This document shows, in pieces, positions 47,473 through 49,292 of a stretch of DNA of 64,000 nt. Made by a program: the position numbers and the translations under genes. Source of the stretch: Escherichia phage WPEC3. The stretch lies in sequence record PV611058; one strand, 5' to 3'. The notes beneath the pieces are model-generated. The model saw only the letters and a program-made list of their open reading frames with translations. It searched no databases and was not told where the DNA came from. Each line of letters starts with the position of its first letter. Within the stretch, counting starts at the first letter, position 1.

Positions 47473-47796
47473 CTATAGCAAGTCGTTTTCCATATCGTCA
47501 AGAACAGAATCAACGATGTTCGCTGCTATCTTCTTAGGCATCTTGAACCACTCGGTGTTAGGTTGCCTTACTGCGTTCATTTGTTTTAGTCTTTTGTGAA
47601 TTTCTTTCTCTGCTAAACGTGCATCTTCAAAGTGTACTTCATGGTATACCACAAAATCTCTAAAAGGTGTAGCAGTTTGATATGTCCTTAAACGTTCTGT
47701 CATTTCAGATTTACTGGTAAATCCTATCTTAACATAATCAGGCCATGCATCATTTACTATAACATAACATATCTGTGACATATAAAATATCTCCAT
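47473..47796 (-). CDS. T5orf172 (GIY-YIG-like) domain protein
   Basis: 107 aa; YVIVND..PDYVKIGFT....ERLRTYQTATP.....EIHKRL......EWFK matches the T5orf172/MUG113 pattern. Confidence 0.6.
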   Translation of the reverse strand: MEIFYMSQICYVIVNDAWPDYVKIGFTSKSEMTERLRTYQTATPFRDFVVYHEVHFEDARLAEKEIHKRLKQMNAVRQPNTEWFKMPKKIAANIVDSVLDDMENDLL

Positions 47797-47820
47797 CAGT
47801 AATATGAAGATATTTATTAA

Positions 47821-48180
47821 TCAAGTAATTCGGAAATTTACACCTGCATCAATTAGGCGTTGGAATGGGTTTTGTGGCTCGAATTCAGAAGGAGTTTTTG
47901 AAATGTTCAGTACTGGAGCATCAGCATGTAACTTTGACATACGTTCTTTGTACTTATCTAAGTATTCTTCATATAACATATCTTCAGTGTTACTATCAAG
48001 TATGTCTTCAATAAATGAATCAATACTATAGTCCAGTCTATCATCATTATAATACAAAGTTTCACTAGCTTCATCATAACCAACTAAAGTTCCGTATGGA
48101 ACATTAATCTCAATTTTTGAGTACTGACTCTTTAAGTACTCTTCTTTCTTAAAAATGTATACAGTTAACATCCGTGTCAA
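47821..48180 (-). CDS. hypothetical protein
   Basis: 119-aa ORF. Confidence 0.45.
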   Translation of the reverse strand: MTRMLTVYIFKKEEYLKSQYSKIEINVPYGTLVGYDEASETLYYNDDRLDYSIDSFIEDILDSNTEDMLYEEYLDKYKERMSKLHADAPVLNISKTPSEFEPQNPFQRLIDAGVNFRIT

Positions 48181-48194
48181 CTCCTTATGGTTGT

Positions 48195-49292
48195 TTACTT
48201 AAAAGTATTTACAATTTCTAAAACACTTTCAAGATACTTAGCATCAAAAGTTTCAGTAAATCCTGATGGCAACTCTTCAGTACTTACCACACCACTTTCA
48301 ATGTATTTCTTTATGAACTTTTCCAACAGTAATGGTTGATTGCCATCTTCAAAGTAGCGTTCTATAAGTACTTCATGCTCGAACTCAGAATTGCGGCTTT
48401 GTTCGTTGACACGGCGTTTCATATCACCAGTGATCCCATATTTGTACACCGTCTTGTTATTGTTAGTTAGTTTTTGTACATAGAAATATCCAGGTTTTGA
48501 TGGTTGGTATCCATATTCACCACATGATGGACATCCTTTACCAGCCATATGTGCTTTTGGTTGTTGGGAGAAAACACCATGCATCGGACATACAATATCA
48601 ACATAATTCTCGCTTATAGTATAATTAACCAAGCTATAATCATACTTATGGTTATGGATAGGAGACACCAGTTCAATGAAACGTTCCGTACTTCTTCCAC
48701 CTTTACCAGAGCATGTACCACAGCCAGTTTTACCGACGATTAGAGTTTTTGGATCTACCGTCCAGTCATGATGTCCTTTTGTGCAATGAACCGTTACTTT
48801 AGTTTTCTGATTGACATAAACAGTATTCGTCAAGTCCAATGCATCACCATAGTTTTCTTTTACTTTTGCAGTGAATGATTCAGTACTATATGCTTCATTT
48901 TTATTACATACGGGGCATCCTTTACCAGAAAGAAATTTATTTGGTGTGATTTCAAAGTAATTGTTGTGCTCTTTATCAGTGCAGAACAGTGTTACTTTTG
49001 TTATAGCGTTAGTGTAATTTAGTTTATCAAATTTGAATTTATCTTTTCCAAATTTAGTTTCTACAGTACTGATGAATGTGTCGTTGTTTGAACGTTGTGA
49101 CATGTTTGAATAACATGATGCACATGTACATGCAATGTGACGAAGTGCAGGTTTGGTGTTTTCTTTTCCACACTTGTTGCATTTCACTGTTGTCTTACTT
49201 GCCTTGAATACTAAAGTACTGAAGTCAAATTCTCCATACTTAGCAGTCATTTGGTTAATAAACTCTTCTTTGTTGATACTTACGTTTGGCAT
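48195..49292 (-). CDS. zinc-ribbon repeat protein with C-terminal T5orf172 (GIY-YIG-like) domain
   Basis: 365 aa; four ~55-aa repeats each ending in a GCPxC-type knuckle; C-terminus PGYFYVQKL...VYKYGITGDMKRRVNEQ...LLEKFIKKY. Confidence 0.55.
   Translation of the reverse strand: MPNVSINKEEFINQMTAKYGEFDFSTLVFKASKTTVKCNKCGKENTKPALRHIACTCASCYSNMSQRSNNDTFISTVETKFGKDKFKFDKLNYTNAITKVTLFCTDKEHNNYFEITPNKFLSGKGCPVCNKNEAYSTESFTAKVKENYGDALDLTNTVYVNQKTKVTVHCTKGHHDWTVDPKTLIVGKTGCGTCSGKGGRSTERFIELVSPIHNHKYDYSLVNYTISENYVDIVCPMHGVFSQQPKAHMAGKGCPSCGEYGYQPSKPGYFYVQKLTNNNKTVYKYGITGDMKRRVNEQSRNSEFEHEVLIERYFEDGNQPLLLEKFIKKYIESGVVSTEELPSGFTETFDAKYLESVLEIVNTFK

Follow-up and report, generated by a model that had tools for sequence, protein, structure and literature searches.

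A Polymorphic Slot behind the Capsid Gene of Escherichia Phage WPEC3 Holds a Putative Homing-Endonuclease-Type T5orf172 Gene

Introduction

Phages carry many T5orf172 nucleases with arrays of CapR-type zinc fingers, and these are believed to help set the boundaries of recombination. Barth, Dunham and Seed (2023, PMC10448857) reported that 87% of 229 T5orf172 genes were fused to one or several fingers of the CapR/DUF723/DUF4379 type. Terminase, ribonucleotide reductase, and capsid genes were overrepresented among their neighbours (capsid neighbourhoods, 31%). The genes varied between isolates and were prone to module shuffling, and those with T5orf172 and CapR/DUF723 fingers near capsid genes were regarded as putative homing endonuclease genes (HEGs). 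One T5orf172 nuclease was found to depend on a conserved Glu (PMC10448857), and CapR was shown experimentally to bind DNA via its four Cys (PMC8096241). For SegG of phage T4, a distant cut site and obligatory co-conversion are credited to Liu et al. (2003), as cited in PMC10448857 (reference 11). Here, a gene of the T5orf172 class, named BIG, was analyzed in 64,000 nt of Escherichia phage WPEC3 (record PV611058; this whole stretch is called the window), together with its neighbours MID and SMALL. BIG occupies a variable slot behind the capsid gene, and SMALL is a second, short T5orf172 gene. Asteriusvirus, the group to which the phage belongs, is not mentioned in PMC10448857, and the literature search gave no paper on this slot in Asteriusvirus.

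Results

The phage from which the window derives is a jumbo coliphage and belongs to the Asteriusvirus (121Q/PBECO4) group. Positions 45000–51000 matched 72 phage records. The top full-length match was vB_Ec-M-J (96.7%), and fEgEco12 showed 99% identity over the 80% covered. Over 38 kb of flanks, nine Asteriusvirus phages showed 98.8–99.7% identity to the window, i.e., at least 99.4% in seven of the nine. Three genes were found between the gp23-like major capsid gene (49437–50612; Pfam Gp23, E 9.5e-90; phrog_138) and the tail-fibre gene (45803–47431; phrog_13229), and all five are on the minus strand. The three were assigned as BIG (48195–49292, 365 aa; phrog_681 'endonuclease', E 2.6e-77), MID (47821–48171, 116 aa; phrog_15724, unknown function), and SMALL (47473–47781, 102 aa; a stand-alone T5orf172/GIY-YIG domain matched by Pfam T5orf172/MUG113). 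An earlier note on this DNA, made from the letters alone, had placed two genes between the capsid and tail-fibre genes. Both were confirmed by ORF, Pfam, and phrog matches, but MID, which lies between them, had been overlooked. In phage 121Q, RefSeq already labels gp604 as 'endonuclease' and gp606 as 'GIY-YIG nuclease family protein', and both kinds of gene are already known.

BIG begins with four tandem modules of 61–67 aa, each with a Cys/His half-site and a CxxC knuckle. The predicted zinc ligands are C38, C41, C57, and C60 (CNKC...CASC) in module 1 (aa 8–68, 49089–49271), C104, H109, C126, and C129 (GCPVC) in module 2 (aa 70–136, 48885–49085), C170, H174, C191, and C194 (GCGTC) in module 3 (aa 137–201, 48690–48884), and C235, H238, C254, and C257 (GCPSC) in module 4 (aa 202–264, 48501–48689), all on the minus strand. 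C104, C126, and C129 of module 2 and the cysteines of modules 3 and 4 were invariant across the family. The four repeats of the earlier note are therefore present, but not at its length of about 55 aa, and the GCPxC-type ending it gave to each of them is limited to repeats 2–4, as GC[PG]xC; repeat 1 begins with CNKC and ends with CTCASC. In the Pfam search, module 1 was matched by a HypA-type zinc ribbon over aa 15–72, module 3 (aa 156–197) by DUF4379 (E 4e-05) and CapR (E 2.6e-04), and module 4 by DUF723 over aa 218–258. The scores of DUF4379, CapR, and DUF723 were all slightly below the curated cut-offs, i.e., 24.2, 21.6, and 18.4 bits against 24.5, 24.2, and 20.9, and the three families were matched by 33, 13, and 15 of 40 BIG family members, respectively. 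This N-terminal part is basic (pI 8.7). From its sequence, it is made up of CapR/DUF723/DUF4379 treble-clef modules and is predicted to bind zinc and DNA.

The C-terminal part of BIG (aa 265–365, 48198–48500, minus strand) is a T5orf172-type GIY-YIG domain with GYFYV, YKYGIT, R294, E324, and GFTETF. It has the GIY-YIG fold together with conserved catalytic-type residues; Y271, K284, G286, R294, and E324 were invariant in the 40 family members, and the AF2 model of BIG had a pLDDT of 86. A T5orf172/MUG113 signature had been noted for both genes. In SMALL it was clear, i.e., 50.6 bits for T5orf172 (cut-off 20, E 3e-13) and 48.7 bits for MUG113 (cut-off 22.3, E 1.1e-12). In BIG the motifs were present, but the T5orf172 profile scored 18.8 bits, below the cut-off of 20, and the assignment was supported through homologues. 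Nineteen of 40 close BIG homologues matched both T5orf172 and MUG113 (best E 5.3e-05 and 6.5e-06), and the protein of slot type C, described below, scored 26.1 bits for T5orf172.

The modular, homing-endonuclease-like architecture suggested earlier for the large gene was borne out, BIG being a zinc-finger array followed by a T5orf172/GIY-YIG domain. By its sequence, BIG is an intergenic gene that adjoins a conserved gene and carries a nuclease domain fused to a predicted DNA-binding domain, as in HEGs. The homologue search gave 961 BIG homologues. Among type-A BIG alleles, dN/dS was 0.07–0.16, which points to purifying selection and a retained function. No match for BIG or SMALL was found in PDB sequence searches, and none for BIG, MID, or SMALL in NCBIfam. 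In a Foldseek search of PDB with the BIG model, the single match below 1e-3 was chain E2 of 6yxx, a Trypanosoma brucei mitoribosomal large-subunit assembly intermediate (E 7.6e-04; 284 columns, TM ~0.2). A similar string of zinc-ribbon modules may be the cause of this model-based match. Recent duplication was also considered as the origin of SMALL and BIG and was rejected, because the profile-profile match was so weak (hhalign E 0.008, probability 5%); SMALL and the nuclease domain of BIG are related only distantly. In the 64-kb window, neither BIG nor SMALL had another paralogue.

Slot states were compared among 23 sequences, i.e., 22 fetched Asteriusvirus genomes and the window. The slot was empty, with three different spacers and no gene, in 4 of the 23; BIG was absent from fEgEco12, CMSTMSU, PBECO4, and SD-6_S16. 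A 365/368-aa gene (type A) was found in eight genomes including the window, a three-finger relative of 306–309 aa (type B) in five, a 332-aa T5orf172 protein (type C) in three, a 408-aa CapR/DUF723/MUG113 protein (type D) in one, and an unrelated 532/552-aa protein with DUF7487 (type E) in two. One slot thus has at least six alternative states, and the nuclease domain is present in types A–D. Empty, A, B, or C slots occurred among the nine genomes that are ~99.5% (98.8–99.7%) identical elsewhere, so that the presence or absence of BIG varies, with precise boundaries, among close relatives. In fEgEco12, whose flanks are 99% identical, 31 bp stand in place of window positions 48172–49357 (1186 bp). 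Homology to fEgEco12 ends at the MID start codon (48171) and restarts at 49358, just inside the terminator T-tract.

The right edge of the slot is fixed by a bidirectional intrinsic terminator hairpin, GGGACTC-TTCG-GAGTCCC (49374–49393, both strands), behind the capsid gene. It was kept in all genomes compared, with or without a cassette. Flanking bidirectional terminators had been proposed; one stands on the capsid side, but no hairpin was found in the 41 nt between SMALL and the tail-fibre gene. The BIG promoter, TTGACA-17-TATAAT (49353–49325, minus strand; 12 of 12 consensus positions), lies 32 nt upstream of the BIG start codon and inside the indel relative to the empty-site genomes. Directly behind the terminator, a TTGAC(A)-type promoter was found in all cassette types but B309 (EC.P1) and D408 (Turkey5), in which TTGAC falls within the terminator hairpin. 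On the left, a spacer (48172–48194, minus strand) that holds the AAGGAG ribosome-binding site for MID comes after the BIG stop codon. The 3' junction AAGGAGTTGACA(C/A)GGATG, which provides this ribosome-binding site, was common to types A–D and was not present at empty sites. The DNA-level repeat search gave no significant direct or inverted repeats at the cassette boundaries; the cassette therefore does not have transposon-like ends. In IMG/VR, no Asteriusvirus contig with the terminator sequence was found, and the loci retrieved there by capsid protein, which were more distant relatives only, were used as an empty-slot control.

Several single genomes add detail to the slot. In Salmonella phage SD-6_S16 (3649–3723), which has an empty slot, the T-tract of the capsid terminator runs straight into the start codon of MID (CCCTTTTCTTTTTTATG), and neither a spacer nor a ribosome-binding site stands before MID. 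The type E copies (ph0011, 3685–5283; UE-S1, 2560–4218) showed a weak REase_MTES_1575-like match, and by sequence the insertion point appears identical for this different nuclease family. Salmonella phage SE_PL (4441–6220) has two slot genes, i.e., a 373-aa CapR-domain protein and a 207-aa ORF for which no family match was found. A CapR/DUF723 'endonuclease' also lies right behind the capsid gene of the distant Klebsiella phage K64-1.

The window copy of BIG lies in a mosaic tract shared with phage JP4. Positions 48191–49637 had seven mismatches to JP4 in 1447 nt (~99.5% identity), with none in 49087–49637, and the BIG protein was 100% identical to its JP4 counterpart. The tract holds BIG, its promoter, the terminator, and the last ~200 nt of the capsid gene. 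Mismatches to JP4 turn dense left of 48190 and right of 49638; the window flanks showed 60–82% (left) and ~94% (right) identity to JP4, against 99–100% to fEgEco12 and vB_Ec-M-J. The JP4-like tract ends no more than ~60 nt left of the BIG stop codon, and no JP4-like sequence was found in MID, i.e., the exchange was one-sided. Since the spacer at the left junction is of the kind usual for the backbone of the window itself, a cassette was already present in the recipient. Judging from these comparisons, the finger array was exchanged together with the promoter and the 3' end of the capsid gene. A lateral transfer in which flanking markers were co-converted is thus seen for BIG; it does not by itself prove a cut, since ordinary recombination is compatible with it. 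When the type-A gene of vB_Ec-M-J was compared with BIG of the window, also of type A, mismatches clustered at 48735–48850, which encodes part of finger module 3. Identity in this module was 85% and in the rest of the gene 94–96%, and intragenic module exchange is therefore indicated.

The co-inherited capsid end carries a haplotype associated with the cassette. The haplotype at 49483–49517 (...ACC GAT AGC ACC AGT TCA CTA...) was found in all eight type-A genomes, which span three backbones, and in none of 14 non-A genomes; positions 49497 and 49533 were fully diagnostic. All differences were synonymous, and some are serine switches between AGY and TCN, for which two or three substitutions are required. 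A synonymous hypervariable patch in the last ~40 capsid codons (49494–49556, minus strand) is the candidate recognition/cleavage (immunity) region. In 60-nt windows, nucleotide diversity was 0.232 at 49497–49556, compared with ~0.06 for the gene and 0.03–0.05 for the two adjacent windows. In seven empty-slot relatives, the homologous window showed no peak (0.099 against ~0.08). A second, smaller synonymous peak was observed in the capsid gene at 50217–50276 (0.102); since the empty-slot relatives show it too (0.175), it is not linked to the cassette. From these sequences, the haplotype and the patch form the pattern that would be expected if slot nucleases recognized the capsid 3' end and carriers were resistant. 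Tight linkage with frequent recombination could give the same pattern, and for this reason the target assignment is kept tentative, as less likely than not.

SMALL differs from BIG in its history. Its likely start is the ATG at 47781, with GGAG 9 nt upstream, and the resulting 102 aa are the length of nearly all homologues. The AF2 model (pLDDT 86, pTM 0.74) has a beta-beta-alpha-beta-alpha topology, i.e., a GIY-YIG fold with conserved catalytic-type residues. In 25 homologue clusters, Y6, K18, G20, T22, R30, E58, E60, E77, and W78 were invariant. The nuclease domain is the whole of the 102-aa protein, so that no DNA-binding or targeting domain was found in it. Short stand-alone proteins of this domain are common; the profile search gave 1890 hits, many of 90–140 aa. 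In PADLOC, SMALL matched the candidate defence models PDC-S57 and PD-Lambda-1.

For synteny, 34 loci with a capsid protein at least 85% identical and the position covered were used, i.e., 22 from the first set (without L023, which ends inside the capsid gene) and 12 added. The order MID, SMALL, tail fibre was found in 34 of 34, including Klebsiella aerogenes and Salmonella phages and ten metagenomic contigs. SMALL homologues (at least 60% identity) were found in 62 phage records and the capsid protein (at least 80%) in 72. The shortfall lies in Klebsiella records, of which 11 matched the capsid protein and one matched SMALL. SMALL is missing only in the more distant Alcyoneusvirus branch. In the one phage of that branch that was checked, Klebsiella phage K64-1, an unrelated 244-aa gene (3868–4602) lies at the position of SMALL, and its protein had no Pfam match. 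The dN/dS of SMALL was 0.03–0.06, with dS saturated (>1). No presence/absence polymorphism of SMALL was found among the 34 loci or 62 records. Because of this fixed position in 62 records and a dN/dS of about 0.05, SMALL is, on the sequences compared, a fixed core gene of the phage clade under strong purifying selection and not a mobile insertion.

The earlier note had read both T5orf172 genes as a mobile insertion and had proposed a synteny comparison for presence and absence. This reading is strongly supported for BIG by the indel relative to fEgEco12, the slot states, and the JP4 tract. It fails for SMALL, which has the conserved position in related phages that the note itself had named as grounds for giving the idea up.

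MID is an ORFan of acidic character (pI 4.39, net charge -11), and its place across the loci is always between the slot and SMALL. Only 13 homologue clusters were found, and no domain was detected in Pfam, NCBIfam, or PADLOC. Among distant relatives, identity was 27–33% for MID, 65–77% for SMALL, and ~50% for the tail fibre. The annotation of phage fENko-Kae01 has LC-MS/MS notes for the capsid, scaffold, and fibre proteins and none for the counterparts of BIG, MID, and SMALL; the three are therefore probably not virion proteins.

Other features were observed in and around the locus. The tail-fibre gene is followed by a tail-fibre assembly gene (45283–45801, minus strand) and a terminator past it (45241–45215). 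The decamer TAATAAATAT, which resembles the T4 late-promoter box TATAAATA, has two copies in the 64 kb, at 47810–47819 and 47463–47472 on the minus strand. Each copy stands right behind a stop codon, of MID and SMALL, respectively, and so directly upstream of SMALL and the tail-fibre gene. Its enrichment was not significant, i.e., two matches against two or more in 17 of 100 shuffles. A perfect sigma-70 consensus had only two matches in the window, the BIG promoter and 2788–2816 (minus strand). Near-consensus TTGACA-17-TATAAT sites (at most one mismatch) numbered seven, where 1.5 were expected, and all seven are on the minus strand; this would fit host-type early promoters spread over the region.

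The large terminase is seemingly encoded in two adjacent minus-strand ORFs (32309–34983). The ORF at 33646–34983 matched Terminase_6N, and no Pfam hit was found for 32309–33613. Relatives are annotated 'terminase large subunit (x2)', and the gene could be split or be interrupted by an intron or other element. Phage WPEC5 covered 96% of window positions 51000–64000 in two pieces, and two 'portal protein' CDSs and a 'DNA endonuclease VII' are annotated there. These observations together suggest a further polymorphic insertion of a nuclease gene, within the portal gene or beside it.

Discussion

BIG is probably a free-standing homing-endonuclease-type gene of the T5orf172 class, and its transfer is probably of the homing type. 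A long DNA site would be recognized by the four basic zinc-finger modules and cut by the C-terminal GIY-YIG-fold domain. The cassette would travel as a self-contained unit, i.e., a sigma-70 promoter, the ORF, and the ribosome-binding site for the next gene, into a fixed slot between the capsid-gene terminator and the MID start codon. The promoter may point to early expression. In a mixed infection, BIG would cut genomes without this cassette type; the most likely place would be within the last ~40 capsid codons, 140–200 bp from the slot. Recombinational repair from a carrier would then copy the cassette and the stretch from the cut to the slot, as one-sided co-conversion, while carriers would be protected by their synonymous, non-cleavable capsid haplotype. 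The window copy would have come from a JP4-like donor, by homing or by ordinary recombination of the same block, into a vB_Ec-M-J/fEgEco12-like genome with a cassette already in the slot. SMALL would be a domesticated phage nuclease that acts on DNA without long-site specificity, structure-specific or general, and may be under the control of MID, the acidic protein encoded next to it. Two further roles were considered for SMALL, i.e., a nuclease that resolves branches at the packaging stage or one that degrades host DNA. We infer nuclease activity for both BIG and SMALL.

Several points weigh against homing by BIG. According to Barth et al. (2023, PMC10448857), T5orf172 homing has not been experimentally verified. 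The T5orf172 score of BIG is sub-threshold, and the match covers only the N-terminal half of the domain. The four empty sites differ from each other, and since there are three kinds, some may be cassette deletions and not ancestral. From the left junction, the event recorded in the window was an allele replacement, and no empty site was invaded. Ordinary homologous recombination and physical linkage could produce both the mosaic tract and the haplotype linkage, with no cut. The hypervariable patch is also rich in Ser, Leu, Arg, and Thr codons, which permit more synonymous change.

BIG could also be a weapon kept by the phage and not a selfish homing element, i.e., a sequence-specific nuclease against competing phages or satellites, active in marker exclusion or against parasites as is ICP1 Odn, with the slot diversity as a specificity arms race. 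The domain set of BIG is the same as in ICP1 Odn and in T5orf172 proteins of phage-satellite conflicts (PMC10448857). The purifying selection on BIG, its strong early-type promoter, several specificity variants in one slot, and the PADLOC matches of SMALL would also suit such a role. However, the co-inheritance of the capsid flank and the shared synonymous capsid haplotype of carriers would be left unexplained, and a weapon alone is considered unlikely. Exclusion and homing are moreover compatible, as the title of reference 11 in PMC10448857 has T4 SegG doing both. It is very improbable that the nuclease domain is inactive and that BIG is a domesticated zinc-finger regulator of late genes, similar to CapR, with variation by ordinary recombination. 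CapR of the PLE satellite is a derivative of exactly this kind, with a capsid operon as its target (PMC8096241), and BIG adjoins the capsid gene and has a weak T5orf172 score. However, the five catalytic-type residues of BIG are invariant in the family, the nuclease domain is kept in cassette types A–D, and CapR itself is without one. Genomes with an empty slot are viable, and therefore no essential regulation depends on BIG.

For the other two genes, SMALL and MID could form a pair, i.e., a nuclease with an acidic inhibitor or DNA mimic, or a split endonuclease, as the remnant of an old homing-endonuclease insertion that became fixed. The mobile insertion of the earlier note would then hold in a historical sense. 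The two genes are always adjacent, MID is very acidic, and short stand-alone T5orf172 proteins are common. The unrelated 244-aa gene of K64-1 implies that SMALL was gained or replaced at some point. On the other side, SMALL showed no polymorphism in 62 records, MID has no detectable domain, and its evolution is much more rapid than that of SMALL, a difference that would be unusual between close partners. This origin is regarded as quite improbable.

The ~60-nt capsid patch might be a shared battleground of at least five unrelated or shuffled slot nucleases, each with its own synonymous version of the target and its own immune haplotype. This extension is doubtful. If it is true, finger arrays of three or four CapR-type modules would be paired with target haplotypes across near-isogenic coliphages, giving a readable modular code of DNA recognition, and T5orf172 homing could for the first time be demonstrated in a tractable E. 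coli system. At this locus, cultured E. coli phages are available that share ~99.5% identity outside the slot (empty, A, B, or C), along with a donor tract and a candidate target patch; cleavage and mixed-infection tests can therefore be designed directly. The multi-state slot, donor tract, and capsid haplotype are experimental handles and not a new principle. For annotation, the neighbouring 'T5orf172' genes should be kept apart, as BIG is a swappable cassette, apparently of the selfish type, and SMALL is fixed and not a homing endonuclease.

Comparison with Known Systems

SMALL showed only 13–19% identity to the SLX1 catalytic domain, T4 endonuclease II, and UPF0213/EF2693. It differs from stand-alone GIY-YIG nucleases in having K18 in place of the second Tyr. 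SLX1 requires the partner SLX4 and a RING domain.

SegG of T4, like BIG, is an intergenic, free-standing nuclease of the GIY-YIG fold. Seg proteins have their nuclease at the N-terminus and bind DNA through a part other than a CapR-type zinc-finger array. BIG has the reverse domain order and a K-x-G-x-T signature in place of Y-I-G. The geometry of SegG, in which a neighbouring essential gene is cut at a distance with one-sided co-conversion, as cited in PMC10448857, matches the tract at 48191–49637. The activity of SegG has been shown experimentally, whereas that of BIG is predicted. PLE CapR, the capsid-operon repressor of the ICP1 satellite, shares homologous finger modules and the capsid association with BIG (PMC8096241). 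It is a repressor that lost the nuclease domain, whereas BIG retains the domain with invariant catalytic-type residues.

The putative T5orf172 HEGs that Barth et al. described from vibriophage ICP1 and other phages form the very class to which BIG belongs. As in BIG, repeated treble-clef modules are followed by a C-terminal T5orf172 nuclease, and the genes are free-standing, lie beside an essential gene, vary in presence between near-identical isolates, and have shuffled modules. BIG differs in falling just under the Pfam T5orf172 threshold. The present gene is hosted by Asteriusvirus in a single slot with at least six states, where the donor-identical tract and the carrier-specific synonymous capsid haplotype can be read directly.

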